Source of the DNA: Eledone cirrhosa
Lineage: Eukaryota
DNA: 64,000 nt
Direction: 5' to 3'
Assembly (NCBI GenBank): GCA_964016885.1
Contig: CAXHJY010000814.1
Span: 23,194 to 87,193, forward strand
Each line of letters opens with the position of its first letter. The first letter of the stretch is position 1. The notes beneath the pieces are model-generated. The model saw only the letters and a list, made by a program, of their open reading frames with translations. It was not told the DNA's origin and did no database searches. This document shows positions 6,195-60,435 of the stretch, piece after piece. A program made the position numbers and the translations under genes.

Positions 6195-6720
6195 GTTGAT
6201 TATTACGAGTAATACCAAATTCAACATAAATGCACCATCATCGGAAAGAATGGCATTTATAACTCGGTATACCGAGTTTCTCTTCAACACACAATCACCA
6301 TTCCTGAAATATGTGAGAATATATGGAATACATTGTTCTACCAAGACTTTTTTAATAACCTTGTTGACAATGGATTTCACTCAGATGAGGAATATCTTGC
6401 TATTATTACAGACGACTATAATAGAAAATGTGCCGAAAAACAGTCCAACGAAGCAAATAAAAACCAACAACATCGATTTGGGACTCCGTCTCCAGCTAGA
6501 TGTGGGTCAACACTGGTGTTGTCTCCAGCTAGATGTGGGTCAACACTGGCGTTGTCTCCAGCTAGATGTGGGTCAACACTGCTGTTGTCTCCACCAGAGT
6601 CAGACAACTCCAATAAAGAGAACCGAGGAATCAATGATGCAGTCTCGTACTGATGCACCTCCGCCAGATCCTTTATAACATCTTTCGTTCCTTAAGCATG
6701 TCTTTATTATATAATTCTAT
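6195..6720 (+). pseudogene. NS1: Endogenous parvovirus-like NS1 (lineage B), helicase motif C to C-terminus
   Basis: LIITSNTKFNINAPSSERMAFITRYTEFLF aligns to LIITSNSRFNSQAPAAERQAFVTRYSEFVF (58729 ORF). After a frameshift it reads IWNTLFYQD..SDEEYLAII, and it has a gcatgtc..attatataatt 3' motif as in the other B copies. Confidence 0.8.
6488..6595 (+). repeat. 33-bp in-frame tandem repeat (x3) within the NS1 C-terminal region
   Basis: gtctccagctagatgtgggtcaacactgg..tt repeated (SPARCGSTLxL). Confidence 0.9.
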
Positions 6721-6811
6721 TGTGTTGTTGTTATTGTTACAGCTCACACCTAAGCAGGTTTAGCTAGACTCCTCCAAGGTATATCTCGGAGGTGTTTTGG
6801 GTGATTTAATG

Positions 6812-6970
6812 TTAGGGACCCCATCTCATTTCTACAGCTGAGTAAACTGGAGCAACGTGAAATAAAGGGTCTTGCTCAAGGAAACAACACATCACCCGGT
6901 CCGAAAATTGAACTCATAACCTTTCGATAGCAAGCCCAATGCTCTAACCACTAAGCAATGCGCCTTCACA
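6812..6970 (-). mobile_element. tRNA-derived SINE (CORE/Meta-like domain)
   Basis: The reverse strand has A-box gcttagtggttagagc, B-box gagttcaatt, then tccttgagcaaga..ctttatttcac.ttgctccagtttactcagctgtagaaatgag; paralogue at 13100-13267. Confidence 0.75.
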
Positions 6971-7011
6971 TAATTCTATTATCAATATTTGTACTTTCTT
7001 TCTTTATGCAT

Positions 7012-7203
7012 GTCGTGGATTGGCAGTATCAGTAGAGGGTCGGACGCCATGCTTTGCAGCACAGTTACGTCCCTTTACGGACTGAGTTCAAGACCCGCCG
7101 AGGTTAACTTTGCCTTTCATCCTTAACGGGTCGATAAAATAAAGTACCAGTAATACACTGAAATAATTGCTGGCCTTGTGCCAAAAGTAGAAACAATTAT
7201 TAT
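7012..7203 (+). mobile_element. tRNA-derived SINE with Deu/Nin-like domain
   Basis: Paralogue of 3670-3856; B-box gagttcaagaccc. Confidence 0.75.
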
Positions 7204-7341
7204 ATAATTCTCTTACCAATATTTGTAATTTTCTTATGTAATAAACTGAAAAAAAAAAAATGAAACGGTAACAAAAGAAAAAGAGGAAGAGAGAGATCAT
7301 CCAGTAAGTCGGTCTCTCTCTCTCTTCCTCTTTTTTTAAAT

Positions 7342-7855
7342 CAAGATTAGTTGTAGGCAAGAGACTACTGACAATCATCTCTACCTATGCTCCCCAAGCA
7401 GAAGGACTCTTTAACGAGCAACTTCTAGAGAAAAGATATGTGGATGTGTGCTGCATACAAGAGGTGAGATGGAGAAGTGCCCCAGCAAGGATAATTGCAG
7501 GCAAACATCTTAGCTATAATCTTCTCTGGGCAGGAAATGATGATGGGTTAGGTAGGGTAGGCATTTTACTGGCCAAGAAGTGGACTGACAAGACAGTAGA
7601 GGTAGTTAGAGTCAGTAATAGAATAATTAAGATTAGATTAGTTGTAGGCAAGAGACTGCTGACAATTATCTCTACCTCTGCTCCCCAGGTGAGCCTAGGT
7701 AAAGAAGAGAAGGAACGCTTTTACGAGCAACTTCTGGAGACAACCATAATGACAGAGGACAGAGACCTAGTCATACTAGCAGGGGACTTTAATGGTCACG
7801 TTGGTCAGCTCCAGGATGGATACACTGGGGTACATGGTTGATTAGGAGCTGGGGG
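7342..7855 (+). mobile_element. RTE-clade LINE AP-endonuclease fragment
   Basis: VDVCCIQEVRWR, VGILL, VSNRIIKIRL, IISTSAPQV, FYEQL and LAGDFNGHVG..GVHG motifs; short internal duplicate at 7342-7430. Confidence 0.9.
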
Positions 7856-8333
7856 ATCCAACATGTAGAAGACCACAAACATGTTTGCCTAGAGGCTAAA
7901 TGCTTTAAATTCCTCCATCTCCCTCCCTCCCAGCTTGTCTCCCTTCACCAAAAGGACGGTGCATTGTGCAAAACTCTTATCAAATTAGGAGTATGATATT
8001 ACATTTTACGCACAGTCAGCCAGAAATATATTTAACATATGGTTAGATGTGGGGGAATGTAACCCAATTCAAATAAATAGGCGGGAAGATAATGTTGATG
8101 GGTCCAAACATGTAAGGCGCGAAAAAAATGCTGACAAGTCAGAACATGTTTCAGAGAGAAAAAAGAATATAAATAGATGGCATCTCTGCAGCTGCAGCGC
8201 AGGCTGACAGAGGAACATTGAGGGAACGGCGTTACCCCATTTGACACAAGACTTCCACACACACAACAGACCATAAGCTACGAAGGCCTAAAGAAAAGAG
8301 ATGCGGAGATGCTGGCAGAGTTGTCGGTAAGTC

Positions 8334-8990
8334 ATGCCATTACATTTACCATTTTATAACTAGAGTGGACCATACACGACTGACGTTACTAAGAAGCCTA
8401 TTAATTTGGACGAGTGTTGCAGAGAACGGGACATTGATTACGGTAGAAATGACATATCAATAGAAGACGCAGACGAAAAACTCATCAAGTGTGCAGATAA
8501 CGTCGAAGGGGTGGCATCGTTCATAGTGAAGTCAGCCATAAAACTGAAAGAACTGATGCCACCTGCATCAACAACCACAAGAGACAACTTCAATTACAAT
8601 GTTTTGTGCGACGGTGCCAAGTAGGCACTTACACGGAGTAATCCCTAAAGGGAAGAGGCATGGTAGAACTATGCACATAACAAAGGACAGTCACGGGGCA
8701 GAAATACTTAAACACACCACTGGCTGGTTTGTTAACAAGTAATGCCATTGTCAATGGTCGATAAGCACTATAAAAAGCAAACATCCACGCCAGACTGTCA
8801 AAGCTACAAGCAGCAGCAAGCCAAGATTCAATTCAACAACGCAGTTTTCCACGACGAAACAAACACTGAAAACCAGATAGGCTACACATGGGTACACCAA
8901 TTCGAACACCCAAAGGAAATAACTTGGGATGAAGCTCCCAGAATCAACACACCAGCCAACACTCTTGTCCATGTCGAAGAGGGCAGGAAA
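8334..8990 (+). pseudogene. VP1: Endogenous parvovirus-like VP1: PLA2 domain, then probable capsid pieces
   Basis: The frame from ATG 8334 reads MPLHLPFYN*SGPYTTDVTKKPINLDECCRERDIDYGRNDISIEDADEKLIKCAD. This is the parvoviral PLA2 Ca-loop (YxGPG-like) plus DxxxxxHDxxY (H to R) and ADxxL. The capsid call for the downstream part is weaker. Confidence 0.75.
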
Positions 8991-8994
8991 AATT

Positions 8995-10465
8995 ACCTTA
9001 TGAAGGTAATCTACAAACAGCCTTCCATTCTAATATTCCACAAAGCAGCATACAGCTAAATGAAACACTGCCATGATATTCCGCATTTCCACATAATATC
9101 GTGGCACAAAGACCATCCATCAAACATACACTCTTTCCAAATGTTAAAAAGCCTAACAAAAAACAAAGGTACAAACCCATATCAACTTACAGTGCAGAAA
9201 ATATTTAACCTGTACGGGTTTTGCCAATACCTGACACAGAATGATGTAAGATGGGTTGTCGCAGCGAACAAAATAGACACCAAAAGCCAAAAACTCATGC
9301 TCAAACAACTAACAAAGACTAGCGAAGAATCAGACGATGACAAGAACAAAACACTACACACAAACAAAACAGTCCGAGGAGCCAAGTACAATTTCATTAA
9401 AAAAATGATGAAAAGATGTAACTTCACGGACATGGGCGATATCATGTGTTTGGTATTTCAGCAAAGTGAAATACCAAACACAGTGGGATAATATATCAAA
9501 ATACCCCCAACTTATTAAACATCATACAAGCTGCAGTGACAAAGACGAACATCGAAACAAAGGCAACCCGTATATGGGAACAAATACAATAAAAAAACTG
9601 AATACTTTACAACTATGACAAATACATACCATGACGTACAAACATTAGACATATAGTATATGTCTAATGTTTGTAAATATAGTATATATCTAATGGTATA
9701 TGTCATATACCATGAATGGATAGATCACAACTTTAATCATGACGACTTCAACCACCACACATTTGAAGTATGTCATAAAATCAACCCAAAGATTAATGGA
9801 CTACACATCACAGGGCCATCAAACAGCGGAAAGATCAATCCGCAACGGCCTTATGAATTGCGGCTGAATGCAATGCCAAGCATCGAACAACTTCACCTTT
9901 GGCAGTTGTATAGACAAAACCCTCATATACACAGATGAAATGTGGTTCTCCGCTAACAACATCTTGGAGGCAAAGTGCATCTTAGAAGGCACCGCCACAT
10001 ACATAAACATCAAACACCAAATCATCATCATTTTACATCCAGAATTCTCAATTGTTGTGTTCATAGTGTTTGGCAGTAGTATTTATACTGGTTGGATGCC
10101 CTTCCTAACACCAACACCAAAATGAACGAATATTAATACGGACACCGTCTCTGTCAACCATTAATGTGGGCCCTTGGAATGTCGTGCTCCACGAAATAGA
10201 CGGTTTGAAAAACCGGCTTTTTTACTATGAGACAAGACGTCACATGCCGAAATTAAAAGACTGGGGCCGCATTGACCTAAACCCCGTCATGTGGCTAACG
10301 ATATGGAAGCCATCCATAGACAAATATGTCCAAAATGCATATAACGAAACATACCTAACATCAAGATCCAAGCCAAACAAAAGATACAGAGTTAATGAAA
10401 AAGATATTCTTTCACCAAACAGGAAACAACAAATAGTAGAAGTAAGACACAACATAGAAAAATAA
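8995..10465 (+). pseudogene. NS1: Endogenous parvovirus-like NS1 (lineage A), near full-length, disrupted
   Basis: HUH motif PHFHII, FCQYL, Walker A GPSNSGK, Walker B LIYTDE, B' AKCILEG..INIKHQ, motif C RTPSLSTIN and LKNRLFYY (Arg finger). Several frameshifts and stops. Confidence 0.9.
10022..10112 (-). mobile_element. Short retroposon 3' fragment inserted in NS1 with 9-bp TSD
   Basis: Flanked by aacaccaaa (10013-10021 and 10113-10121) with a (GAT)n-type tail on the minus strand. Removing it restores IKHQNERILIRTPSLST. Confidence 0.75.
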
Positions 10466-10979
10466 TTAGAAACACCAGCAACATCTAAAATGACAGCATT
10501 CACACCAACAAAAATGACTACGCCATGCGAAATGGACCTAGAACTAGCACAGGCGTGCGTCATACACGATGCAGATATGAGTGGCTGCAGCTTTCAAAGA
10601 ACAAAAGAAGAATGGAGCCCCTTACTAATCACACCAACGTTGTGACTATCACACAAACATAAAAATTACTTCCTATGATTAAGAGCTAGAGAATATACAC
10701 CAACACCCTTCAAGAGATTTTCACTTTAACAGCAAATATTTCGAAGATTTATATAAACAAGATGCTGATCAATTTTTTTACTTATTTCTGTAACTTTAAA
10801 ATATTTTATTCTCTTCGCTGTCGCTTAATAAAAGAATTGAACTTAAATCTTGCCTTTGTTATCTTTTACATTAATATATATATGTATGTATGTATGTATG
10901 TAAAAGGTAAACAGAAATAACAACACAATCAGTACTGTATATATATATATATATATATAATGTAGGACGTGAGTTTTAT

Positions 10980-12491
10980 TGTAGAACAATGAGGCATTTA
11001 ATGATACAATCATATTTTATTTTAAATAACTCATGAAGAAAAATCATATTTTTATCACGCAAAAGTTTTACAACACATTTTATATTTATCGCTTTTTTTC
11101 AAGAAAATTCTTAAATTTTCAGATTTAAAATTCAGTAGAATGTTCTCGATTAGGTTTAAGGTAACTTCTAAGGACTATTAAAAACATTACGTCATTATTT
11201 GTCTGACGACCATCCTGTAAACATTGATAACCGTCCTGTAAACATTGACAATATGGGGAAAAATAAACTGATTGATCAAGACCTCTGTAAACGCATTGTA
11301 GACCTTCATACAAATGTTGGTTATAGAAAGATATCTTGTCAGTTAAATGTGCCATTGAGTTCAGTTGGTACTATAATTCGTCACTGGAAATCTCATCATT
11401 CCATCTGTCCTCTAATTAGTTCTGGTCGTCCGAGAAAGATAACGGAACGTGCAGCTCGGTTATTGACGAGAAACGTTGGCAGCAACGAACCCCGGTGTAC
11501 TCTTAAAAATCTTCAGGATGACCTAGAAGGAAGTGGAGTAAAAGTGAGCACAGATACAATTAGTCGCTCACTTCGTCGATATGATATCTTCTCGAGGTCT
11601 CCAAGGAAAACACCACTTCTTACGAGGAAACACGTTCTTCCTCGATTAAACTTTGCAAATGAACATCTCATCAAACCTGCATCGTTTTGGGAAGATGTAC
11701 TTTAGTCGGACGAAAGAAAATTTGAACTTTTTGGTCGAAATGCTGTGGCAAAAGTCTGGAGAAAGAAAGGTACTGAATATTCGCCAAAGAATACTATTCC
11801 AACTGTAAAATTTGGAGGTGGATCAATCATGGTCTGGGGTTGCTTTAGTGCCACAGGTGTAGGAAATATTGAAATACTAGAAGGAAGAATGGAGGTATTT
11901 ATTATAGAGGTATTTTGCAAAGGAATTTACATCAAAGTGTACATTCTCTCAGCTTAAAGCCAGGTTGGTTTTTTTCAACAAGATAACGATCCAAAGCATA
12001 CTGCAAAGCTAACACAATCTTGGTTAAGTACGAATGGAATAAATGTTCTAAAATGGCCAAGTCAGTCTCCAGATATTAACCCGATCAAAAAATTTGTGGA
12101 GAGAACTGAAACTCAGAATTCAAAAAAGGAAACCCCAAAATATCCCTGAACTAAAGAAAATTTGTTGTGAAGAATAAAAATATTAGCCAAGAAACATGCA
12201 AGAAGTTTGTAGGAGGCTACTCCAAACGCCTACAGGCTGTAATTAGCAACAAAGGTTACGCTACGAAATATTAAGAGATGATTTAATAAATGTGTTGTAA
12301 ACTTTTGCGTTATAAAAATATTGATTTTTCTTCACGAGTTATTTCCTTGTTATTTTTTTTTAAATATGATTGTATCATTAAATACCTCATTATAAGTTCT
12401 ATCAGCAGTTAAATTTTCATTACCCTAACTTTATTAAAAATTCCTAAAACCACATTTTTCCTAATATGTTGTAAACTTTTGTGGGGCACTG
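10980..12491 (+). mobile_element. Tc1-family DNA transposon, IR/DR type, defective transposase (~11253-12274)
   Basis: HTH region with SGRPRK, then [29 protein letters not shown] and [12 protein letters not shown]. Long IRs (~10990-11085 vs ~12288-12390) carry the repeated caaaagttt(t)acaac motif. The right end is ...gtggggcactg|TA; the left outer end is lost. Confidence 0.93.
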
Positions 12492-12763
12492 TATATATAC
12501 ATGAATATACGTATATATATACACATATCTGATGAGAATGCAAATATCGGATGATATTTGTTTTTGAAATGCGCATAATAAAATACATGGAACTTTTTTA
12601 ACCATCTTTATATTTCTTCTTATATACTCCAGTCCAATAAACTGTTGAGTGCTACTTATCCGATATTTGCATTGCTTTATTGTTCTACAATAAAACTCAC
12701 CTCCTACATTATATATATATATACATACATATACTGTACCGATTGTGTTGTTATTTCTGTGAC

Positions 12764-13075
12764 TGCTGGGTGCTTTTTTGCCGTGGCACCTACACGTCCA
12801 CTTTATAGTGTGGGCTGGATGCTTTTTTGCCGTGGCACCTACACGTCCACTTTATAGTGTGGGCTGGATGCTTTTTTGCCGTGGCACCTACACGTCCACT
12901 TTATAGTGTGGGCTGGATCCTTTTTTGCCGTGGCACCTACACGTCCACTTTATAGTGTGGGCTGGATGCTTTTTTGCCGTGGCGCCTCCACGTCCACTTT
13001 ACAGTGTGGGCTGGATGCTTTTTTGCCGTGGCGCCTCCACGTCCACTTTACAGTGTGCGCTGGGTGCTTTTTTTC
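12764..13075. repeat. 49-bp minisatellite (~6 copies)
   Basis: gctggatgcttttttgccgtggcacctacacgtccactttatagtgtgg repeated. Confidence 0.9.
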
Positions 13076-13671: not shown

Positions 13672-13980
13672 TATACACCAGGAAACACATTAGACTTAGC
13701 AGCAAAACCACATGACTTGGACTACAACAATCCAGACAAATAATTTATCAACGCCACAATACGAAGCAGACCGACTGGGATAATTGCAAGCGGAGCAATC
13801 GCTGCAAAACATTATCTGGGACTTGATAACTACTTCTGGGGTACCCCAGAGCGTCAACATACTTAGCCTGACATTTCTAATAATAATCAGCCTCTACGTG
13901 ATATGGGTGAAATGGGGCCATTATCAATCGATTTCTCAGTACGGATGGCAGGGAACACATATCGGACCAGACATACCACC
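13672..13980 (+). pseudogene. VP1: Second parvovirus-like VP1 PLA2 remnant
   Basis: An unannotated frame reads YTPGNTLDLAAKPHDLDYNNPDK*FINATIRSRPTGIIASGAIAAKHYLG, matching the VP1u pattern PxNxxDxAAKxHDxxY...ADxxFIxxT...G.I......K. Confidence 0.75.
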
Positions 13981-14449: not shown

Positions 14450-17400
14450 GACACAAACTTTGAAAACTAAGCAACACATCAATTTATACAACAACAAACA
14501 TAGCGTTACTCTCTCCGTCACTCTTCCCTCTCTCTACAATAGATTATTCCCCCCTCTCTATAATTTAACTGCTTTACTCTCTTCATGCTTCGAGGTTTAA
14601 CACACCTCCTTATGGTTTCTTAGCTTCACTCTCTCCATCGCTCTTCCCTCTCTCTATAATAGATCTTTCCCCCCTCTTCGTTCAGAAACGCGAAAAAAAC
14701 TTTGATAATTAAGCAACACATAAATTTATACAACAGACAGTCATAACGATGCTCATACATCAAATAACAAAACTTAAAAAGCCGATAACACTACTCATTT
14801 GGCTGATAACAAAAATCAACGAAAGCAGCACTGACAGCATCATTTCAGCAGAAATACCCAACCCAAAATTGGACAGAGAACTCCACAACATCGTCACTGT
14901 TCACATGGTTCATGGGCCATGCGGGAATGGTTTCAATATGAATTCGCCATGAATTAAAGAAAGAAAGTCCACCAAGAGGTATCCTAGGCCATTCCTCCAA
15001 GAAACTCAGACGGGTGGCGTCAGTTATCCATTATACCGCTGCAGGAAGCCAACGGACAGAGGAATTGTTGTGATAACACCACATCACCACGTCGACAAGC
15101 GGTGCATTGTACCCTACTGCCCACTTCTGCTTAAAATGTTTAACGCCCACATTAACGTTGAATACTGCCACTCCGTCAAATCAATAAAGTATGTCTGCAA
15201 GTTCATCAATAAGGGGTCCGATGCTGCGTCCTTCGGTCTTACAATGCAGAACAGCCGATACATCAGCAGTAATGAAACGTTCTCACAATTCTTACACTTT
15301 ACAATATACCATAACTACCCCCCAATCAAACAGTTGGCGGTGCACCTTGAAAACGGTCAAAGAGTCTACTTCACCGCTGCTGAGATAGCAAAGGAACCCA
15401 AGGACACCACACTTACGGCATTTAAGTTATTCCAAAACGATCCCTTCGCCAAGACCCTCTTCTACTTTCAGGTGCCATCATACTACACATGGAACACAGA
15501 CAACAGAATTTGGTTTAGAAGGGTGAAAGGACAACCCGTTGACGGACATCCAGACATTAAAATGTCCCCAACCCTTGGGAGAGTGTACACCATTAATACC
15601 AACAGGAATGCTTTTAATCTCCGCCTTCTACTGCATGAGGTGGTAGGACCAACATCTTTCGACGATCTGAAAACAATCAACGGAGAGACTTGTACTTCAT
15701 TCCGCGCAGCCTGCCTTAGATGGGGTCTACTGGAAGATGGCACTCAGTGGGATGCGACATTGGCGGAGGCAGCTACAACACGCTCAGTGCGAACTCTTCG
15801 GCAACTCTTTGCGGTGCTACTGCAGACATGCGAGTTAAGCGACCCTGTATCCTAATGGGACAAATACAAAGAGGACCTTTCCGATGACAACATACACCAA
15901 GGACAACTGCTACTCCCTCATTCCGACGTACGACTCAGCGACGAATTCTTCAACAAAGATCTCATTGACATCGAGGACAAAATCCTAACTGCCGGCGGAA
16001 ATCACCTTCCATTCTATGGACTGCCAAAAGTTCAGCGAACGGGCTCAGAGAAACTTCCGAAGCGCATAATTCAGGAAACTGCCTACAACATCGATGCCCT
16101 CAAACTGTTCATCAACGAAAACGAGCCGAAATTGTTGCAGGACCAACAGCGGGCGCGACAGCAAAAAGGAATCGCCCGGGCTGTGGCGGCTTCTGGGATT
16201 GCTGCAACTCTGCTGCCCGGAGGGAGGACAGCTCATTTCGCATTTAAACTACCATTCAACACGACTTCAGACGACACAATAACCTGCAACATCATCAAGG
16301 ACTCTGACAAAGCGGAAGTCTTGATTGTGTGGGACGAATGCACAATGGCCCATAAAGGATCCCTTGAGGCGTTAGACAGGACCCTACGAGACATCAGGGA
16401 ATGCAACCGGCCGATGGGAGGAGTACCTCTACTGCTGTCTGGCAATTTTCGACAAACTCTTCCAGTTGTTCCAAAAGCCACCAGGGCCGACACTGTGGGG
16501 GCTTGCATTAAATCATCTCCCCTGTGGCAGGAAGTGACAACTTGACCCTCACAACAAACATGAGAGCCCAACTGCTCGGCGACCGCTCATCAGCAGACTT
16601 CTCAAAGGTCCTCTTAAAAGTTGGTGACAGCACTGCACCTTCAGATGCAGCTGGAGAAATGGCAGTCTCGCAAGTAAGCACTGTTGTCGACACTCTTGAC
16701 GACCTCACAGCCTCTGTCTTTCCCGATATGGCCATCAACTACAAAAACACGAGTCGTTTGTGTGATAGAGCCATATTGGCTCCCAAAAATGTCTCCGTTG
16801 CAAAAATCAATGAGGACCTTCTGCAATGCATTCCTGGAAACCTCCGTACCTACAAATCTGTTGACAAAGATGAGGTTGACGATTTTCCAACAGAATTCCT
16901 CAATTTCTTGGACCTCTCTGGACTGCCACCTCATTAACTGCGCGTCAAAGTTGGGTCTCCAGTGATGCTGTTGAGGAACCTGGAACCACCACGTCTCTGC
17001 AACGGAACACGGTTAGTGGCAAGAAACCTCCTGCCGCATGTAATTGAAGCCACAATTCTCACGGGCTGCGGCACTGGGGAAAACGTCTTCATACCCAGAA
17101 TACCATTAACTCCATCAGGTATGGAATGCCCCTGTACTCTGCGCCGACTTCAATTCCCCGTTAAACTTTGCTTCGCGGTGTCAATCAACAAGTCTCAAGG
17201 CCAAACGCTATAAACAGCATGCCTACATTTAGCCCAGCCGTGCTTCTCACATGGCCAATTATATGCCGCATGCTCAAGACTTATTCATACTTGCGCCCAA
17301 AGGCAGAACAAAAAATGTGGTCTACATAGAGGTGTTGTGACTCCTCTATTCAGCACCACTACAGTCTTGCCGGTCTGACATATGGTGAGTAGATGCTATT

Positions 17401-17451
17401 GTTGTACTTTAAAGCAATTAAACTCCGAGCAATGGCGGGCACTTCTGCTAG
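14450..17451 (+). mobile_element. Helitron (RepHel pseudogene) with intact 3' terminus
   Basis: Rep motifs: IISAEIP, MVHGPCG, AHINVEYC.SVKSIKY..K.INKG, YISSNE, VHLENGQRVYF, GPTSFDDLKT. PIF1 motifs: ASGIAATLL.GGRTAH, IVWDECTM, SGNFRQTLPV, LTTNMR, LCNGTRL, RLQFPVKLCFAVSINKSQGQT, FSHGQLY. A GC-rich subterminal segment precedes CTAG (17448-17451) followed by T. Walker A is deleted and the 5' end is unclear. Confidence 0.95.
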
Positions 17452-20400
17452 TATTAATATAATTTACTATGAATGACATTTATTGTAATTTTTATTTCCC
17501 TATGGCAATTAAAAAGAAGAAAAGTAAAATTTGATCTAAAAGAAATATGAAAATAGAAGCCAGCCATACATCCCTTACACCTCACATCACAAACACCACC
17601 ACCCCTCTACTCATTCAAGCGCAAACGCAACCTCCAAAACCACTTCATTCATAGCTCCCTTCCACCTCCTATCACAAACAGCACCACCCTCCACCTCCAC
17701 TCATTCAAGCACGAACGCAACCTCCAGATCTTCCTCATCCATAGCTCCCTTCCTCCTCACATGAAAAAAACACCACCACCTTCCAAGGCCCCAACATCAA
17801 ATCCCTCCCTGCCTGCCACTCTTTCTACTGCACCTCCTCCAGCTTTGTCTAGGGACTCATTTGAACGATATCTGGAGTCCCCTATGTCAAATGAACGTTG
17901 TTTCTCGCTAATATCAAATGAGGACACTGACTCATATCTTGCATTTATCTTAGATGAATACGAGGGAGAATTTCAAGAACAACAACCTCAAGGAAACAAC
18001 GAGCGAAATAGGTGACCAAGTGGATTGGGGACTTTGACCCCAGCTTTCACACTGAGTCAGGAATAAAAACAGACACTACCTACTCTGCTCAAGAAAAGAA
18101 CAAAGACAACGAGATTCCTAAGACGACTTCACTGATCAGCAGAAATGGGTGAAATACAGGCACCTAATAAAGTCAAACACAGAAGCACCAAGTCCCACTT
18201 TATTAACAGATTCTCAATTATAATTTTCTTATATTGCATGTCATATTAATATAATTTACTTTGTATGACATTTATTGTAATTTTTATTTCTCTATGGCAA
18301 TTAAAAAGAAGAAACAAAGAAATTTGATCTAAGAAAAATATGAAAATAGATGCCTGCCATAGCTCCCTTCCTCCTCACATCACAAATACCACCACACTCA
18401 CACCCCTCCACTCATTCCAGCAAGAACACAACCTCCGGAAACTTCTCATCCATAGCTCCCTTACACCTCACCACAAACACCACCACCATCCAAGGGCCCA
18501 AAAGCAAATCCTTCTCTGCCTGGCATTCCTCCTACTGCACCTCCTCCAGCTTTGTCTACGGACTCCTTTGAACGGAATCTGGAGTCCCCTATGTCAAATG
18601 AACGTTGTTTCTCGCTAATATCGAATGAGGACACTGACTCATCCGACGAATATCTTGCATTTATCTTAGATGAATACGAGGGAGAATTTCAAGAACAACA
18701 ACCACAAGGAAACAACGAGCAAAATAGGTGACCAAGTGGATTGGGGACTTTGACCCCAGCTTTAACACTGAGTCAGGAATACATACAAATGCTGTTTACT
18801 CTGCTCAAAAAAAGAACAAAGACAACGAGATTCCTAAGACGACTTCACCGATCAACAGAATTGGGTGAAATACAGGCACCTAATAAAGTCAAACACAGAA
18901 ACACCAAGTCCCACTTTATTAACAGATTCTCAATTATAATTTTCTTATATTGCATGTCATATTAATATAATTTACTTTGTATGACATTTATTGTAATTTT
19001 TATTTCTCTATGGCAATTAAAAAGAAGGAACAAAGAAATTTGATCTTAAAAAATTATGAAAATAGAAGACCGCCATAGCTCCCTTACACCTCACATCACA
19101 AACACCACCACCCTCTACCACACTCACACCCTTCTATTCATTCAAGCACGAACACAACCTCCGGACCCTGTTCACCCATAGCTCCCTTCCTCATCACATT
19201 ACAAACACCATCACCCTCCTCCACTCATTCAAGTGCAAACACAACCTCCAAAACCACTTCATTCATAGCTCCCTTCCACCTATCACAAACACCATCACAC
19301 TCCACCTCCACCAAACTCACAAACCTCCACACATTCAAGGACGAACGCAACCTCCAGATCTTCCTCATCCATAGCTCCCTTCCTCCTCACATCAAAAAAA
19401 CACCACCACCTTCCAAGGGTCCAACACCAAATCCCTTTCTGCATGCCACTCTTTCCACTGCACCTCCTCCAGCTTTGTCTACGGACTCTTTTGAACGGAA
19501 TCTGGAGTCCCCTATATCAAATGAACGTTGTTTCTCGCTAATATCAAATGAGGACACTGACTCATATCTTGCATTTATCTTAGATGAATACGAGGGAGAA
19601 TTTCAAGAACAACAACCTCAAGGAAACAACGAGCGAAATAGGTGACCAAGTGGATTGGGGACTTTGACCCCAGCTTTAACACTGAGTCAGGAATAAAAAC
19701 AAACGCTACCTACTCTGCTCAAGAAAAGAACAAAGACAACGAGATTCCTAAGACGACTTCACTGATCAGCAGAAATGGGTGAAATACAGGCACCTAATAA
19801 AGTCAAACACAGAAGCACCAAGTCCCACTTTATTAACAGATTCTCAATTATAATTTTCTTATATTGCATGTCATATTAACATAATTTACTTTGTATGACA
19901 TTTATTGTAATTTTTATTTCTCTAAGGCAATTAAAAAGAAGAAACAAAGAAATTTGATCTTAAAAAATTATGAAAATAGAAGACCGCCATAGCTCCCTTA
20001 CACCTCATATCACAAACACCACCACCCTCTACCACACTCACACCCTTCTATTCATTCAAGCACGAACACAACCTCCGGACCCTGTTCACCCATAGATCCC
20101 TTCCTCATCACATTACAGACACCATCACCCTCCTCCACTCATTCAAGTGCAAACACAACCTCCAAAACCACTTCATTCATAGCTCCCTTCCACCTCCTAT
20201 CACAAACACCATCACACACCACCTCCACCAAACTCACAAACCTCCACACATTCAAGGACGAACGCAACCTCCAGATCTTCCTCATCCATAGCTCCCTTCC
20301 TCCTCACATCAAAAAAACACCACCACCTTCCAAGGGCCCACCACCAAATCCCTTTCTGCATGCCACTCTTTCCACTGCACCTCCTCCAGCTTTGTCTACG

Positions 20401-47400: not shown

Positions 47401-48207
47401 GAACAAAGACAACGAGATTCCTAAGACGACTTCACTGATCAGCAGAAATGGGTGAAATACAGGCACCTAATAAAGTCAAACACAGAAGCACCAAGTCCCA
47501 CTTTATTAACAGATTCTCAATTATAATTTTCTTATATTGCATGTCATATTAATATAATTTACTTTGTATGACATTTATTGTAATTTTTATTTCTCTATGG
47601 CAATTAAAAAGAAGAAACAAAGAAATTTGATCTAAGAAAAATATGAAAATAGATGCCTGCCATAGCTCCCTTCCTCCTCACATCACAAATACCACCACCA
47701 CACTCACACCCCTCCACTCATTCCAGCAAGAACACAACCTCCGGAAACTTCTCATCCATAGCTCCCTTCCTCCTCACATCACAAACACCACCACCTCCCA
47801 AGGGCCAAACAGCCAATCCCTTTCTGCCTGCCTCTCTTTCCAATGCACCTCCTCCAGCTTTGTCTATGGACTCCTTTGAACGGAATCTGGAGTCCCCTAT
47901 GTCACATGAACGTTGTTTCTTGCGAATATCGAATGAGGACACTGACTCATCCGACAGACATCTTGCATTTATCTTAGATGAATACGAGGGAGAATTTCAA
48001 GAACAACAACCACAAGGAAACAACGAGCGAAATAGGTGACCAAGTGGATTGGGGACTTTGACCCCAGCTTTAACACTGAGTCAGACATACCTATAAATGG
48101 TACCGACTCTGCTCAAGAATAGAACAAAGAGAATGAGATTCTGATGACCACTTCACCAATCAACAGAAATGGATGAAATACAGGCGCCTACTGAAGTCAA
48201 AGGCAGA
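17452..48207 (+). repeat. ~30.7 kb satellite: ~38 monomers (~715 bp and ~920 bp, mostly alternating, ~1.63 kb dimer), Penelope/parvovirus-NS1 chimera
   Basis: ORF track recurs every 1626-1642 bp (22617 to 43867) and every 712-715 bp where short units are adjacent. Each monomer is a PLE piece (HSFQQEHNLRKLLIHSSL..HSSYCTSSSFVYG) plus an NS1-B C-terminus (ERCFSLISNEDTDS(SDR)HLAFILDEY) and its 3' UTR. Confidence 0.95.
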
Positions 48208-50344: not shown

Positions 50345-51578
50345 TTTTTTAAGGTGTTACAGATTTATAAAGAGACAGACCGGCAGTAAGAATGAAATCA
50401 AGAATAGCACAAAAAATGCCTGAAGATTATAAAAAAATAATCGAATTTCACAGGTTCATAATTAGTGCAAGAAAAAAGACTGACTTCAAACTGGATCAGA
50501 TCAGAAACATGAATGAGGTGCCACTAACGTTTGATGTGGTATCAAATAGAACAGTGGATGTTAAAGGGTCCAAAACAGTAAATGTAAAAACATCTGGACA
50601 TGAGAAAACCCATTATACTGCAGTACTGTCGTGTTATGCTGATGGAACAAAACTGACACCGCAGCTAATTTTCAAGAGGAAAACTTTACCAAGACACAAT
50701 TCCACATGGAATGTTTGTTCACATCCATCCAAAGGGGTGGACGGATGAAGAGGGAGTAAAGTTATGGCTAGATCAGGTCTAGTTAAGGCGTTCCGGTGGC
50801 CTCCTTAAAAAAACCATCCCTTCTTGTGTGGGACCAGTTTCCTGCCCACAAAACAAAGGCTATTAAAGAAAGGGTGCAGAAATTGAAAACGGAAATGGCA
50901 GTGATCCCTGGTGGTTTAACAAGCCAATTACAACCACTGGACGTATCAATCAACAAGCCTTTTAAGACATTTATGAAAGAAGAGTGGAATTAGTGAATGT
51001 GAGCCAAGGACTATGACCTAACACCAACGATTGCTCAGGTGTGCGAGTAGGTCCTGAAATCATGGAACGCTGTGAAAGCTGAATCTTTTAAAAAATGTGA
51101 CATCAGTAATGCATTAGATGACACAGATGTTGACATTCTGTTTGAAGATAGTGACACTTCGGACAGTATTGATGAGCCTGATGATTTTTCTGGTTTTGAG
51201 GCTATGGATGACTGCAGTCAGTTTTCAGGATTTGAAGAGTGAAATAGTATCCTTATACTTGTACGTTTAATATTTGCACACTTTTTAATCTTTTTCCATT
51301 GTAATTTAATTGTGACGTTTGTTTTGTCATGTCCATGTGAAATTTTTACAAATGGTAGAAACATGAAATATTTTCAGAATTTGAAGATTAAGTGACATGC
51401 TGGAGGTTACATTGAGGGCTTTTTTTTTTCATTGCATCTGTAAAGGTAACAACACCTGATGGGGCCTTGCGTCCTGGAGGCTGAAGGTTGTTTATTGTAT
51501 TTTTTTTTTCAAATTTTTGGTTGTCAAAATTAGGGTGCGTCCTCGAGGACAAAGCGTCTTCGGCGCCAGGAAATACGG
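50345..51578 (+). mobile_element. pogo/Tigger DNA transposon, 5'-truncated (DDE_1 transposase pseudogene)
   Basis: NMNEVPLTFD, KTSGHEK, ADGTKL, LLVWDQFPAH, VIPGGLTSQLQPLDVSINKPFK and SFKKCDISNALD motifs, an acidic tail, and a pogo-type end ...gaaatacgg. Confidence 0.9.
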
Positions 51579-51710: not shown

Positions 51711-52739
51711 TTGTCATTAACATCTTAGTTTATTTGAAATTTTTTTTAAAAAAGAATACTCAAATTTTGCTCACCGTACCACTTATTTATCTTCCCTGAT
51801 CACTAATGATCTCCCTTTGAAAATCACTTGCATATCCATTATAACTAGACCCTTTTTAATATCCAAGTTCCACCTTTACTGTAGGTTTATCACTTCGGTG
51901 ATGTGTTTTGATTTTTGAGTTTGTAACTGAATTCTTCTATGTTCTGCCTGGCAGAGATTCGAAATCGAATCTAAAAATTCTCGCCTCTTAAATCACGTAT
52001 TGTTAGAAAAGTAGAAAAATCTTTCACCAATGTTTTGTCAAAGGCAACCATGATAAATTTTATGTACCACTTGACCTGTGACCCCAGACATACCACAGAC
52101 ACTTGACAGACAATAAACAGATGGCCTGGCTATTGTCTCAAAAACGATAGACACGTTCTTCTAACTATAGTACATTCTTATAAATACAACCGCTTCGAGA
52201 GACAAAGTAGAGAGTAGCTGAGACAGCGACAGAAGAACAGTTCTACCAATAACAATGGAGTATCATCACGAATACAGTTATCTAGCTACCACTCTCTCAC
52301 ATTTCTTACTTGCTTGGTACAAGAGGCATACCAAGAGACCTGGAACCCAAGAGGACCGGAACAAGAGGACTTGGCATTAAACGAAATTTTAAGTGTCACT
52401 TTCAACTACGCCCAAGAAACAACGAACGTATGTGTCAAACCGTCAAACAACTGTCAACAGGAGGTATGGTAGTGGCAAACAGAACTCTCATAAACAAAGT
52501 AATATACACCAACAAAGACCTGCCAGAAATGATTTTAATAAACGTACCGCTCATCGTCAAACTGTACGGAAGTGCGACAACCCTCTACTACACATTTGAG
52601 GTCTAGTTATAATGGATATGCAAGTGATTTTCAAAGGGAGATAATTAGTGATCAGGGGAGATAAATAAGTGGTACGGTGAGCAAAATTTGAGTATTCTTT
52701 TTTAAAAAAATTTAAAATAAACTAAGATGTTAATTACAA
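51711..52739. repeat. ~140-bp inverted repeat pair (51711-51851 and 52600-52739) around a 748-bp spacer
   Basis: ttaacatcttagtttattt...cacttgcatatccattataactagacc is the near-perfect reverse complement of ggtctagttataatggatatgcaagtg...aaataaactaagatgttaa. Confidence 0.9.
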
Positions 52740-52782: not shown

Positions 52783-53290
52783 CTGTATAGATAAAACCGT
52801 TATCTATACTGACGAAATGTGGTTCACCACAAAAAACGTTCAGGAAGCCAAATGTATATTAGAAGGAACGCCAACCTATATCAATATAAAGCACCAGAAT
52901 GAGTGAATACTAAAAAGAACACCCAGTTTGTCAACCAGCAATGTAGAACCATGGAATGTTGTTTTACAAGAAAAAGAAGCCATAAGAAACTGACTGTTCT
53001 ACTATACCATCAGATCTGAAATGCCAAAACTTAAGGAATGAGGTAGAATAGAACTAAATCCACTCTTGTGGCTCACAGTGTGGAAGAACTATATTAACAA
53101 GTGCGTAGACAATACGTACAACAAAATCTATTTGACAAAAAACAAACCCAAGAAATCTACGCACTTCGTAATACCGGATACTGACCACTTATCACCAAAA
53201 AGAAAACGGCAGCTAAACGAAATCAAAGGTCAGTTATCTAAAGCATTATTCCCTGAACAAACACTCAAAAGGCTGAAAGTATGTTGACTA
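52783..53290 (+). pseudogene. NS1: Endogenous parvovirus-like NS1 (lineage A), Walker B to C-terminus
   Basis: CIDKTVIYTDEMWFTTKNVQEAKCILEGTPTYINIKHQNE*ILKRTPSLSTSNVEPWNVV...LFYY...GRIELNPLLWLTVWK; colinear with 9907-10465. Confidence 0.88.
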
Positions 53291-53439
53291 GATCCTGAAA
53301 AAACCAGCACAAGTCTGTGTATATCACAGAAAAATAACATGTTAAACTCACCAACAAATCCTACAAACAAACACAAATTAGCGAAGACAAAGAAACACCA
53401 CACCAACGATGTCTCTAACGGACAACTCATCCACTACAG

Positions 53440-53690
53440 ATGTGGCAGTTCAAGCAGCAATTACATTAAAAATACCACCATTCTGGGTACACAACCCAGT
53501 CCTATGGTTCGCGCATAAAGAAGCTGTCACATTGAACCGGATTGTTAATGATGCAGCTCGTCTAACTCATATCATTGGTTCGTTGTCTCCAGAGATCATG
53601 ATCGTCGTCCAAGACCTGATTTTGGCACCACCCAGCTCTGTGTCATAGGACACATTCAAAGTAAACCTAATGAAGAGGACGTCAGAGATG
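53440..53690 (+). mobile_element. Ty3/gypsy-type gag N-terminal fragment
   Basis: KIPPFWVHNPVLWFAHKEA...IIGSLSPE...VQDLILAPP matches the KLPPFWxxxPxLWFxxxEA gag motif. Confidence 0.7.
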
Positions 53691-54397: not shown

Positions 54398-55606
54398 CAA
54401 TAAAGAGCGTAAACGAAGGCGAACCAAAATTTATCAGCAAAAGCGACACAACTTTGTTCTTATTCAACTACTTGTCGTATATATTTACATCGAAAAAATT
54501 TAGAATGGAACAAGATATGAAAGCATACTGGCTAAACCGCTTAAACAACGATAACTTTATAAAGCTATCGTGCATCACTAGTACGATAGTGTCATGAAGA
54601 AAGTACTGGAATGTGAAAAGCTTAAAACACTTGCCAAACCATTCAAAACAAAATTTGAAGAAATTACCTGGGAATACTTCAATGGAAACAGTATATACCT
54701 CGACGTCGACACTTCACTCAAAGTCATAAGAACAATTTCAATGACTCAGAAAATTAATGAGAACAAATTCAATAAAGTTTGGGAATTGCTAACGTTAAAG
54801 GCCCAGAAACAAAATTTATTAGTTTTGAGAGGACTGCCAAATACGGGCAAAAGCATGATCACAAGATCAATAGCTGATCTTGTCAACGGTGCAGGGAACA
54901 TCGAGTTTCCCATTTCAAAATCTTATAAATGTCAAAATCAGTCTAATAGAGGAACCATCATTCACATTGAAACCATTGTAGACTTTCAAGAAACTTGCTG
55001 AAAGCGTCGACACGGAAGTAATGGTTAAATTTAAACTGGATCAAACTGTAAAAAGAACACCATTAATTATAACTTCTAACCTAACGCGAAATTCGATGCA
55101 CAAGCACCAGCTGCTGAGAGGTATGCAGTTCGAGGTTCAGTTACCATTCCTTAAACATGTGAGAAAGCGACTGGCTCCCGGTATTTGGAATGTACTTTTT
55201 TATGAATACTGTTTTTCATCATTATCAAACGGGGACAGTGATTCATCAGATGAACACTTGTTTTACATTCTAGCCGAATACAAAAAGCAGTGTGACGAAC
55301 AGCGAAAAAGATGTGCCAATACAGAGGGACGAAGTTGACTGGGGATTCCGATTAGAACTGGAAGCTGGGACACGTTGCTCTGCACACCAGAGCAACAAGG
55401 AGAATATACCTCCGATGAAGAATTTACCCAAGAACCAAAATAGGTTAAATACAGAAGACTGTTGAAATCTAACAGAGATGCTGAAAGTCCTGTCCTAATA
55501 TCAGATGAATTATAATTTTCTTTTCTGCATGTCATCATTATATAATTTCATTGCATGTTTTTTTATATTATATTAATTTCTTATATATTTGGAAATAAAA
55601 AAAAAA
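54398..55606 (+). pseudogene. NS1: Endogenous parvovirus-like NS1 (lineage B), C-terminal two-thirds plus 3' UTR
   Basis: PKFISKSDTTLFLFNYL, MKKVLECEKLKT, Walker A LVLRGLPNTGKS, KRTPLIITSN, LAPGIWNVLFYEYCFSSLSNGDSDSSDEHLFYIL; AATAAA at 55594. Confidence 0.9.
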
Positions 55607-56071
55607 GTGAGGAGAAACTCGAAGCTGGCCGGGAGGTCGGTTTCGAGTTTTTTTGGTTTTCTTTTAGCTTTTTTAAAGAAAGATGATTATTGCACCGTTC
55701 AAAGTGGTCGGGAGGGAGGTGAATGTCTATCGGCTAGTCATTCACTTCCCGATTATAACTCTGCACACTGTGCAACTCGCTAAACGAACTTTCTTTCTAC
55801 ATTACAGGCACTCAATAACAAAATGTACATGTTAAAAACAATCAATTCACATGGAAGAAGGAACTGCCCTTACAGAACATCTTTGACATTGACGTAACAA
55901 ATGACATCATGATGGAACCATCACATCCTCTATATAAAAATTCTTCTTCTGCTAATAGGTATTAAGGAAAACTAAGTACGCAAATGTATGGTGGGTCTGG
56001 AACCAGATATGACAGTCAAAAGACTTTAATAAATTGGTATTTTTATTATTGCTCCCTTTATCGTAATGTAC

Positions 56072-56290
56072 TTAACCCTTTAGCATTCAAACCGCCCCGA
56101 ATTCTCTCACTTCTTTCTGTTAAAACCAGCTCTAACTGGCCATTCAGACTGAAGTTACCATATTTTTCTCGAAATGAATAATATCAAAATCTCATAGATT
56201 CGATACTTTATGAGATAATTATGTGAGATAAAGCCTTTACTGTGAAAATACAATAGTAAATATAGAGTAATGTAAATGCTAAAGGGTTAA
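56072..56290. mobile_element. MITE with TTAA-flanked TIRs (inverted copy of 4680-4897)
   Basis: ttaaccctttagcatt ... aatgctaaagggttaa. Confidence 0.85.
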
Positions 56291-57564
56291 ATAACACATG
56301 ACCAACTACCAGTCAGCACAACGGTGAACGGAAAGATACATTGTTTAATTTGCAACAACCGCATCGCCGTACCAAAAGAGTACAACTTGAAAAGACATTA
56401 CGAAACGAACCATCGATCTTACGATAAATATGAAGGCCTGTAGTGAGTATCGACATCTGTACTTGGGGAACAAAACTAATTAGAGTTGCTTCCCCGTGGC
56501 CAGAATATAAGTGAGTGTTCTGACGTCACTCAACCTCTCTTTCGGTCCAGCTTCTCCGAGCTGTACACATCTGCTGGGGACCTCTACCATAAGGCTCAGC
56601 TCAGATGCATTTCAATCCTTCTCATAAGGATTAACAATAACAAGTCACACGTATGTTCTGTAATCATTGTAACACACAAGCACACGAATAAAGAGTAAAA
56701 CTATTTTAATAACTACGTTATTATTATTATCATGTTTGAATTAACACCAATAACCAGCTAACCAGATGAGTGAACTATATTTCATGTATATTATATTTCC
56801 AGTCTGCATCACATCATCATGCTTCCTGCCTTCCTTATGTATTCTTGTATTCCTGCCTTCTTTCATATTATATAATTTAGCATGTGGGATAACATTTGGT
56901 ATTCCAGACTCACTTGGACATAAACCCAAATCCCTTTATACTATTCGCTAAAGGCCCAATGTGTGTTTCAAGACTCAAGGAATTGAAGGCTAACTTGACA
57001 CAGCAACAGACCTGTTTTACAAAAATTCAGGCATAAAGCTGGTCTGTGGTATAAAAAGGGTAGGTGACTGTTGTTTTACAGGGCAGGAAAATGTTGTTTT
57101 ATTTATTCAGAAATCAGTGAATGATTAGTTTTTCCTAACCTTTCTTCACTTTATATTTCGTCTTTAAAACTAAAGTATGTATTATTTCCTTCTCGGCGAA
57201 GTTATTGATTGGTTTAATGACCAGAAAAAAATTAGATGAGTTTCATGCAGCAAGACATCTCTAACTACTATGCAGCCATTCCCCCATTGCTTCTGAAAAA
57301 GGCCTTACTCCTTGAGATGAGGAATTCAAGCCTTACTAGGAGGGAAGAGGACACTTTATATTTGGTTTTAAAAACTAAAGTATGTATTATTTCGTTTCCC
57401 ATCACTCAATGAGAAAATGTACACGTTCGTGTAACCTTGGATTAAAAACAATCAATTCACGTGGAAGAACTAACTAAACAAACTTTCACAAGACAAGCAT
57501 TACGCTAAACGACAACAAACACTTAATTCATTCAATGCAACTAAATATATTCATCATTAACTAC

Positions 57565-59035
57565 AGGAGAGAAAGGAAAATCTTTAGATGTTAATCTACC
57601 CGTGGATTGACAATGACGACTTTCACTGAGACGAGGATAATGAAACACTCAATGAGCAAGCCAACATACAAGTATCTAATGAAACCTTACGCAATGGTTT
57701 TTACGAGGCAAAGAATACCTATGCTAAAACTGCTGCACAGAAGATTATAGAATTTATAAGTATAGTTGGTGAGGTACTAATTTATCATCCAGCGGAATCA
57801 AGAACATGCAATAACAAGGACTGGAACATCTAAAATCATTTCCACATAGTATGGAAAAGTGTGACAAGACTGGGAGAGAACCAAAAACTCAAATGCATCA
57901 GACACATTTACAAGAAGGCCACAAGTTTAAACAGATACATTCCAGACTGTCAGAAAGTCAAGTTTCCGTCTACCATGGCTAACTATTTTTGCCAAAGGCC
58001 ACGACGTCTTCTAGTAAAAGGAAAATCCTTCATAACAGCAACTTTTGCACAGTGGTGCATGTGCGATAACATACCGAAACCCGAAGTTGCTACGACATCT
58101 ACAGCGAACAAAAAAGGAAACGACACCAAACCAAAATTTGTAACGAAGAAAGGTACAACCATGTACCTATTCAATTATTTGATGTATTTTTTCACTGAGA
58201 AAAAGTTTCGCACAGAAAAAGATATGAAGGCGCACTGGTTGAATAAGACAAACAGCGAAGAGTTTTTGACAGCGATTGCTCACACTCAATACAACATGGT
58301 GATGAAGAAGGTTTTAGAATGTGAGAAGCTAAAAACATCGTCCAGGCCATTCAAAACCAAGTTTGAGTCAATGGACTGGGACTACTTCAACAACAGTAGA
58401 CTACTCCTCGATGTAGAGACATCACTTAAGGTTGTTCGTACGATACTAATGACACAATCTATTAATGAATCAACTTTCGTGAATGACGTTTGGGACCTTC
58501 TCACTCTGAAAACGGAATCTACCGGTGCTCAGAGGACTACCAAATACAGGCAAAAGCATGGTAGCTCAATCTATTGTGGACATGTTTACACACTGTCGAC
58601 TGTACAGGAAACATCTAGTTTCCCTTTTCAAAACTTAGTAAACGTTGAAATAGGATTAATAAAGGAGCCTTCGTTTACACTAGAAACACTAGACCATCAA
58701 ATAACTTTCAGAGGGTGTCGATACGGAGGTGATGGTGAAGTTCAAGCAGGACCAAACCGTCAAAAGGACACCTCTCATCATAACATCCAACAGCAGGTTC
58801 AATTCGCAGGCTCCAGCAGCTGAGAGACAAGCGTTCGTCACACGTTATTCAGAGTTCGTTTTTACTGTCTCAAATCACTTTTTGTTACATGTCAAAAAAA
58901 GATTGAATCCTGGTTTGTGGAATATATTATATTATTCTACGAACATTGCTTTTCACTAATATCAAACGAAGACTCAGACTCAGCCAATGAACATTTATCG
59001 TTCATTCTAGAAAGAAACGAACGAGAAGCAGAACG
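57565..59035 (+). pseudogene. NS1: Endogenous parvovirus-like NS1 (lineage B), near full-length
   Basis: HUH NHFHIVWK just upstream of ORF 57861, then MANYFCQRP. After a frameshift: VLRGLPNTGKS, FPFQNL, IGLIKEP (Walker B site), RTPLIITSN and EHCFSLISNEDSDSANEHLSFIL. Confidence 0.9.
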
Positions 59036-59039
59036 ACCA

Positions 59040-59564
59040 CGTACATGGGTTAACAGAACTCATAGTTGGTTCAGCATGATGGAATACTACACATTCAATT
59101 CAACTTTCGAACCTCCAACAATTCAATTAATGAACGGACTACAGACTGAAATAAATACATATTCCGGTGCACTAAAATCACAATGGGCACCAACTAAAGA
59201 CGGTACATGGTCTCAAGAATTAGTGGTTGACAAAACGGCAAAAGAGAATACAGAGAGGTCACACTTAACACAATTTCCAATAAATCCTTCCAATCCTCCA
59301 CCGATAGCTTGCGTCGTTTGAATACCAATACTAGACTCACAAAATAACGTAGCAAAGATAACATTCATGATGACTATCACATACGAATCAGAAGTAGATT
59401 TCAAATTCATCTCTGGTAATCCGCAAATGATGGGTTGCATGGCTTGGGGCGAAGACAATGCAACATTAATGAACTCCGCAAAAATTAACTTATGTAAACG
59501 GTCTCAAGGTTTACGTAATTATGAAATAACAAGAACTGGCAAAACCAGACAAGCTCTATGTTAA
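59040..59564 (+). pseudogene. Probable parvoviral capsid (VP) C-terminal fragment
   Basis: One long frame with one stop reads PINPSNPPPIACVV*IPILDSQNNVAKITFMMTITYESEVDFK, resembling the PP motif and final beta-strand of densoviral capsids. It lies between NS1 pieces. Confidence 0.5.
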
Positions 59565-59589
59565 AGTAATATTACAATAACTATTTCAC

Positions 59590-60435
59590 CCACTTGCAAC
59601 AAGTCCATAAATCCATATCAACTCACGGCCAACAAGATCACCACACACACAAAGTCAAAATCTAATGTTAAAGCAACTCACAGATAAAGACTTCACGCCG
59701 GAAAACATGGAATCCGACAACGACGACGATAACAGATCATTGTCCACAAACAAGACAATTCGTGGAGCAAAGTACAACTTTATAAAAAAAATAATGAAGA
59801 GATGTAACTCTACGGATATGGGCGGCATCATCAGATTCTGCAAAACGACTTCTAAGGAAAAATATAGAACGCAGTGGACTAATATCTACCAAAATATGCC
59901 TAATCTTATAAACATCATACAAGCAGCCGCTATAGAAAAGACAGAATTTTTCAGTAACATAGCAAAAACTTGCAGACATCACTAGATATCTACGAGTGGA
60001 TTGAACACTACAACATTAATGACGACAACTTCAACCGCCACACGTTCGAAGTGTGCCACAAAGTAATGGCTAAAAAGAACGGGCTACACATGACAGGACC
60101 TCCGAATAGTGGCAAAAGCTACATCCTGAGGTCTATAAAAAACAGGCTCATGAACTGTAGGCCTATGCAATGCCAAGCTTCCGATAATTTCACAGCTGCA
60201 TAGACAAAACGCTCATATATACTGATGAAATGTGGTTTACCACAAACAATGTGGAGGATGCCAAGTGCATTCTAGAAGGAACAGATACCTATAAATACCT
60301 ATATTAATATAAAACACCAACAAGAAAGGATCATGAAAACAACCCCATCACTATCAACCAGCAATGTCGAACCTTGGAAAGTAGTCACACGAGAAAGAGG
60401 CCGCCAAAAGCCGTCTATACTACTACGAAACGAGG
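59590..60435 (+). pseudogene. NS1: Endogenous parvovirus-like NS1 (lineage A), middle region plus helicase
   Basis: NPYQLT, MLKQLT..TNKTIRGAKYNFIKKIMKRCN, Walker A GLHMTGPPNSGKS, IDKTLIYTDEMWF, AKCILEG, TPSLSTSNVEPW. Confidence 0.9.

Follow-up and report, generated by a model that had tools for sequence, protein, structure and literature searches.

Helicase fragments of parvoviruses are already known from cephalopods. In the passages covered of Francois et al. (2016; PMC5013282), fragments of two lineage types are reported from Octopus bimaculoides, Euprymna and Sepia, the marine mollusc sequences fall outside known genera and a transposon adjoins the octopus piece. In this study, we analyzed a 64,000-nt stretch of the Eledone cirrhosa genome (assembly GCA_964016885.1, contig CAXHJY010000814.1, positions 23,194–87,193; hereafter the window), in which decayed parvoviral nonstructural protein 1 (NS1) and capsid genes of two lineages, A and B, are crowded among transposon fragments. 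Compared by eye, the O. bimaculoides protein KOF81493 carries GLPNTGKS, FPFQNL and RTPLIITSN, the lineage B motifs seen here, and expressed sequence tags from Euprymna and Sepia carry the lineage A motif RTxCLSTSN, with ELNPxMWL in Euprymna (PMC5013282). A first-pass annotation of the window had suggested possibly undescribed mollusc parvoviruses as the source, which needs qualifying given that helicase fragments with the same motifs stand in the supplement of that paper. The passages covered deal with helicase fragments only; layout, hairpins, splice sites, stacks of several viruses and young insertions do not appear in them. What appears to be new here is the gene order and the stacks. We consider it probable that the window is a same-strand stack of at least seven capsid-first parvoviruses, at a locus that is likely similar to a one-strand PIWI-interacting RNA (piRNA) cluster and keeps this orientation.

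Three further systems are useful for comparison. Monosense Parvoviridae bearing a phospholipase A2 (PLA2) domain resemble the elements described here in having about 4 kb between unlike hairpins, an NS1 with a superfamily 3 (SF3) helicase and a jelly-roll capsid with an N-terminal PLA2; they differ in that here the capsid gene lies 5′ of NS1 on the same strand, and NS1 is at most 28% identical to named structural matches. Section 1.1.1 of a 2024 review (PMC11357303) places NS on the left and the capsid gene (VP) on the right in all parvoviruses, an order found in neither lineage. Arthropod piRNA clusters rich in endogenous viral elements (EVEs), as presented in the part covered of 10.1101/396382, similarly have viral pieces, including parvoviral ones, crowded with transposon fragments, whereas our locus is from a mollusc and its putative cluster character is read from strand bias. 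The jumbled EVE of the virus IHHNV (infectious hypodermal and hematopoietic necrosis) in Penaeus monodon (PMC8982415, covered in part) has rearranged, repeated and tandem parvoviral fragments reminiscent of the young inverted inserts and the satellite described below; it contains one virus with inverted pieces, in contrast to at least seven viruses on one strand in the window. No account of capsid-first parvoviruses or of cephalopod stacks was found in the literature searched, subscription journals being outside its reach.

Parvoviral pieces and their source viruses

All coordinates are window positions, the window being the last 64 kb of an 87-kb contig in a 3.0-Gb genome. NS1 pieces were placed by tblastn, the queries being open-frame relatives found in this genome. 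Six decayed pieces (three of A, three of B) were found, all on the + strand, with E values from 1e-15 to 1e-119, and 38 satellite monomers carry a seventh, which is a lineage B tail. The viral pieces form seven blocks with other DNA between them, and A and B pieces are directly joined inside two of the blocks:

6196..6675, +, B1, lineage B NS1, C-terminal part, containing three copies of a 33-bp unit (tblastn)
7873..7991, +, left-end remnant of lineage B, from the hairpin region, 77% to another copy's left end, E 4e-18
8273..8333, +, predicted first exon of NS1: a 54-nt mini-exon, now decayed, with splice donor GTAAGT
8334..8564, +, lineage B capsid gene, 5′ portion, which has a PLA2-like domain (PF08398 weak, E 0.009); E 4e-22 and 55% to B capsid
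8562..8742, +, 3′ tail of a lineage A capsid gene, directly joined to the B capsid piece at about 8563
8743..10589, +, A1, lineage A NS1 near full length, 9 breaks, two inserts
13678..13836, +, lineage A capsid, short fragment of the PLA2 region, 47%, E 1.5e-8
17450..48100, +, satellite of 38 monomers, mostly alternating between about 710 and 926 bp
52454..52603, +, lineage A capsid gene, one piece
52784..53251, +, A2, lineage A NS1, tail and second half of the helicase
54421..55582, +, B2, lineage B NS1 from middle to end and 3′ non-coding part, 8 breaks
57488..57584, +, capsid–NS1 spacer with predicted acceptor CAG at 57564–57566, preceded by the final codons of a B capsid gene
57585..59039, +, B3, most of lineage B NS1, 7 breaks
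59043..59586, +, lineage B capsid gene, 3′ third, with the beginning of the spacer, directly joined to B3 and A3
59590..60434, +, A3, middle of lineage A NS1 including the helicase, 5 breaks

Short-read contigs from one sample, which may be the sample assembled, match 52000–61000 with 12 single-letter differences and one 1-nt gap listed, and they bridge the joints between B3 and the capsid piece (near 59040) and between that piece and A3 (near 59590) without differences. Four capsid pieces, a capsid tail, the left-end remnant (7873–7991) and the genome layout had escaped the first-pass annotation. The motifs it named do stand at the places given, all on the + strand, for lineage A (GPxNSGK at 9813 and 60096; IYTDEMWF at 9928, 52805 and 60218) and for lineage B (GLPNTGKS at 54831 and 58534; FPFQ at 54907 and 58620; RTPLIITSN at 55054 and 58765). 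The sets are less complete per piece than it had them: A2 begins after Walker A, A3 reads TTPSLST instead of RTPSLST, and B1, which does belong to lineage B, is a C-terminal part from LIITSN onward. The satellite has none of the three B motifs, only an NS1 tail and 3′ non-coding part.

The parvoviral origin proposed earlier is borne out. Open-frame NS1 proteins of both lineages match Parvo_NS1 (PF01057) at about E 1e-16, ahead of papillomavirus E1, and identity as a non-parvoviral SF3 helicase was rejected as such helicases score lower. The model of B NS1 (mean confidence, pLDDT, 69) has the Rep68 protein of adeno-associated virus (AAV) as its best PDB match, and its best 50 viral models comprise 46 named parvoviral NS proteins, three unnamed proteins and one herpesvirus U94, at 12–28% identity. 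An HFHII motif is conserved by eye in NS1 and the fold alignment to Rep68 is full-length (457 columns), with no Pfam Rep_N hit. The capsids of both lineages contain a PLA2-like domain (PF08398); the matches listed for the B capsid model (pLDDT 59) are all parvoviral capsids, and the capsid matches that of Penaeus monodon metallodensovirus (PmMDV) at E 1.5e-9. By sequence and predicted fold, the elements thus encode a parvoviral NS1 with SF3 helicase and a jelly-roll capsid with PLA2. The NS1 proteins of A and B are related over about 390 residues (26% identity), and the two lineages have one unusual genome layout in common. In PMC13426907, as far as covered, the family has six subfamilies and family-wide classification rests on the SF3 domain; we therefore file both lineages as parvovirus-like with a changed layout. 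Membership of a genus calls for 35–40% NS1 identity over 80% together with clustering, and the best named matches here, found by structure, reach 12–28%.

Each lineage has 11 NS1 relatives in a 5.8-billion-sequence library. The intact relatives hoped for in viromes did not turn up: there were none in IMG/VR or the JGI metagenomes, and no free virus genome was seen. The sole named capsid relative (39%) is annotated in Octopus vulgaris; P0195, annotated as capsid, lies on a 177-Mb O. vulgaris record. Distant B-type NS1 proteins (P0006, P0008, P0009, P0010 and P0011; 33–38%) occur on long ENA contigs, which suggests inserts of the B-type clade in other hosts.

The dN/dS comparison recommended in the first-pass annotation was made on uncorrected proportions of nonsynonymous (pN) and synonymous (pS) differences, because corrected dS was saturated in most pairs. 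Four pairs (B2-B3, A1-A2, A1-A3 and A2-A3; 67–70% amino-acid identity) have pS of 0.75–0.81 vs pN of 0.18–0.21, and their pN/pS of 0.22–0.28 compares with neutral control means of 0.77–0.86 (200 runs, lowest 0.43–0.57). The breaks fall at different codons among the pieces, those of B2 and B3 near codon 337 being deletions of unequal length. Quick trees place A3 as sister of a C6 copy (93) and put B2 and B3, without B1, in a group with two C3 copies (100); a clade made up solely of the A pieces of the window is rejected (p 0.042). Not all comparisons point this way: pN/pS is 0.69 in B1-B2, inside the neutral range, and 0.47 in B1-B3, at its edge, although B1 spans only the variable NS1 tail and its two pairs are a weak test; window-only B clades are not rejected (p 0.16 and 0.39) in a test run without three distant rows. 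Since synonymous sites are saturated and breaks are unshared, the pieces evidently stem from at least seven different viruses and not from local duplicates. The four pairs show divergence under purifying selection before integration, as had been proposed. Source viruses may be strains or species, because decay after insertion inflates pairwise distance.

The satellite has a different history. Every monomer combines a C-rich dispersed repeat with sequence from yet another B virus, namely its NS1 tail and 3′ non-coding part. This viral tail is 64–70% identical to B1, B2, B3 and two C3 copies, the monomers are 92–100% identical to each other, and the array is a later local amplification of one captured tail. 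Short tandem repeats of viral pieces are frequent (L050; L051 on C27; L056 on C25; window 6488–6593).

Capsid-first layout and predicted splicing

Searching the E. cirrhosa genome itself gave 33 matches for lineage B (53 candidates) and 17 for lineage A (45 candidates), spread over many chromosomes. Genome-wide, the capsid gene precedes NS1 on the same strand wherever the capsid end and the NS1 start of one lineage are both kept. Young B copies have a 123-bp stem upstream of the capsid gene (z -29). About 4 kb away, downstream of NS1, lies another hairpin that differs from it, the arrangement of a linear 4–6 kb genome with terminal hairpins. A 19-nt GGGA-repeat stretch is common to both ends of the young B element, and three B ends on C10 start with a flipped core. 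Upstream of lineage A capsid genes, inverted repeats or left hairpins were recognized by eye; a right end was not seen. Left-end remnants are also found at C12, C2 and C25, and the one in the window (7873–7991) folds no better than shuffles (z 0.02). These inserted copies show a left hairpin, then the capsid gene and then NS1 in both lineages, followed in lineage B by a right hairpin.

In lineage B, a 54-nt frame encoding a conserved 18-residue peptide lies ahead of the capsid gene in all seven distinct capsid starts examined, and in six of them it ends at a GTRAGT donor 7–10 nt before the capsid start. Differences by codon position among six sequences are 0.34/0.24/0.50 in this mini-exon vs 0.60/0.77/0.69 in the 54 nt upstream. 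On the other side of the capsid gene, after its stop, a CAG is located exactly 18 nt before the NS1 frame in 10/10 units and is invariant amid variable neighbors in the eight units compared; a stop stands next to this acceptor in 2/10 units. Because the mini-exon donor and the acceptor are in phase, we predict that the lineage B capsid gene is nested in an NS1 intron. One left promoter would then serve both genes: unspliced RNA would give the capsid, and RNA from which the capsid gene has been spliced out would give NS1. Against this model, lineage A has no matching donor ahead of its capsid gene. Among 198 stored proteins there is no protein that begins with the mini-exon peptide; five YEDLK-like matches are internal and likely due to chance. 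If true, a capsid-first parvovirus with its capsid gene inside an NS1 intron would break the layout called universal in the 2024 review and invert the usual early–late logic of gene expression.

Multi-virus stacks, strand bias and alternative explanations

The first-pass annotation described a hotspot, which proved to be one of nine loci with at least two different viruses (the window, C12, C2, C18, C25, C23, C7, C27 and C3). At each of the nine stacks the viral coding pieces are all on one strand, and at least one captured piece, in the window, includes the viral left end. The window contains seven transposon pieces with Pfam hits, all on the + strand (LINE, long interspersed nuclear element):

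7308..7841, +, endonuclease fragment of a LINE-type element (Pfam PF03372)
10911..12760, +, Tc1-type transposon with inverted ends, closest copies 96%
14700..17350, +, Helitron fragment (PIF1 helicase), closest copies 91%
50371..51242, +, pogo-type transposase fragment (PF03184)
53382..53648, +, DUF7041 fragment; at C18, DUF7041 stands at the start of a long terminal repeat (LTR) retrotransposon
56291..56443, +, Spin-doc zinc-finger fragment, transposon-type protein (PF18658)
61100..62500, +, LINE reverse transcriptase fragment (PF13966)

None of the 85 minus-strand open reading frames (ORFs) of at least 55 residues has a Pfam hit. At C12, C2 and C18, all eight further transposon elements or families are on the viral strand, giving 15/15 at four loci; at single-virus loci, 0/2 neighboring elements are. 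As transposon pieces share the viral strand at the stacks, and as transposon and viral fragments are dense and of one orientation like those of a uni-strand cluster, piRNA-cluster-like traps are suggested. Viral DNA would have entered by end joining while the germ line was infected, in part as pieces joined virus to virus beforehand; the period would have been limited and lie about 6% neutral divergence back, a value suggested by 17 stops in the window pieces. A locus transcript from the opposite strand could yield antisense piRNAs, and selection would keep only this orientation since antisense piRNAs result. RNA-templated capture was set aside for 7873–8564 because this piece keeps the left end and an unspliced donor.

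Several points weigh against this interpretation. The + strand scan covered 58 hand-picked ORFs of about 110, the single-virus strand control consists of two cases, and five stacks had no transposon hit in the stretches fetched. Mollusc piRNA clusters are reported at 2.7–17 kb, smaller than the locus (PMC11067994, covered in part). Decay is even over eight pieces of the window (36 breaks in 2085 codons, p 0.89) and C12 is uniformly young (1 break in 2661 codons); for this reason, one or few co-captures fit equally well. Moreover, since several pieces join without host DNA and the eight scored are equally decayed, seven source viruses need not mean seven integrations: of the roughly seven captures counted earlier, the number of viruses stands and that of separate integrations may be lower, and seven captures is an upper-range count. 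The locus nevertheless took inserts at more than one time, as its transposons are 96% and 91% like their closest copies.

The alternatives differ in what they leave unexplained. A single A and a single B insert might have been duplicated locally and then have decayed neutrally. Local duplication did make the satellite, and B2 and B3 do fall in one subclade; as an account of the NS1 pieces it is hardly credible, given that third codon positions differ by 54–59% vs 13–20% for second positions and that neither breaks nor flanks are shared. It is ruled out for A1–A3 and for B2-B3, in agreement with the earlier claim that these are not local duplicates, and weakly tested for B1. We regard it as very improbable that ordinary NS-left genomes, by way of circular or concatemeric intermediates, gave rise to the capsid-first order as an artefact. 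NS1 is at times followed by a capsid gene in stacks (C12, C23, window 59043), as such an artefact would have it, but the hairpins lie upstream of the capsid gene and downstream of NS1, only about 55–65 nt without a hairpin separate the B capsid stop from the NS1 frame, and ten units from viruses whose synonymous sites are saturated have this spacer in common. Hairpin positions and the recurrent spacer largely refute it.

Co-infecting parvoviruses could also have been joined head to tail in one germ cell, entering in few insertions that were later broken up by deletions and transposons. Direct virus–virus joints at about 8563, 59040 and 59590, the close succession of the C12 units, and decay that is even within the window and within C12 but strongly different between them (p 3e-12) are in line with this scenario. 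It needs a single cell with seven viruses, leaves the shared strand of transposons of different age (96%, 91%) unexplained, and is at odds with the four young single-virus inserts, three of which hold inverted coding pieces and are not head to tail; the decay test, in turn, is blind to twofold age differences. We hold it to be unlikely. Less likely still is a landing pad, in which hairpin remnants left by an earlier insert are bound by the NS1 of an incoming virus, which guides the new genome to that place and into the same orientation. AAV Rep directs integration at AAVS1. The GGGA-repeat stretch at both ends of the young B element, the left-end remnants kept in the window, C12, C2 and C25, and the occurrence of viruses upon viruses at nine loci would suit such targeting, yet the orientation of transposons is unaccounted for, A and B left ends are dissimilar, and in the 20 kb fetched the four young inserts are not inside older viral pieces.

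We advance a broader proposal tentatively and with more doubt than confidence: cephalopods may host a subfamily-level clade of capsid-first parvoviruses, one lineage with an intron-nested capsid, which still enters the germ line and is archived, several viruses together, in one-strand piRNA traps as an inherited antiviral memory. Differently aged stacks together with near-identical fresh inserts make a mollusc piRNA record of DNA viruses directly testable; mosquitoes appear to keep one.

Other copies add detail. One B element is present with 99.8–100% identity and different flanks at C5:102.83 Mb, C14:8.50 Mb, C998:35–39 kb and C10:49.49 Mb (L042–L049), three of the four copies carrying inverted rearrangements; this suggests very recent insertions or assembly chimeras from an infection. 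At C12:9.072–9.089 Mb (L029–L030), young and nearly break-free capsid–NS1 units of B, A and B lie among Helitron and pogo pieces of the same strand. Many one-strand zinc-finger reverse-transcriptase elements separate an A from a B insert at C18:15.03–15.09 Mb (L032–L037), where there is an in-frame fusion of a B NS1 with an LTR-retrotransposon integrase.

The 23 kb of contig ahead of the window has no viral match, and 12 ORFs scanned there have no Pfam hit. Within the window, a stretch at 54070–54420 looks reverse-transcriptase-like by eye, has one relative at 87% and no Pfam hit, and continues in frame into B2. A 141-bp inverted pair (96%) occupies 51711–51851 and 52600–52739, the latter between the capsid piece and A2, and minisatellites of 61 bp (1722–3497) and 49 bp (12765–13073) are also present.

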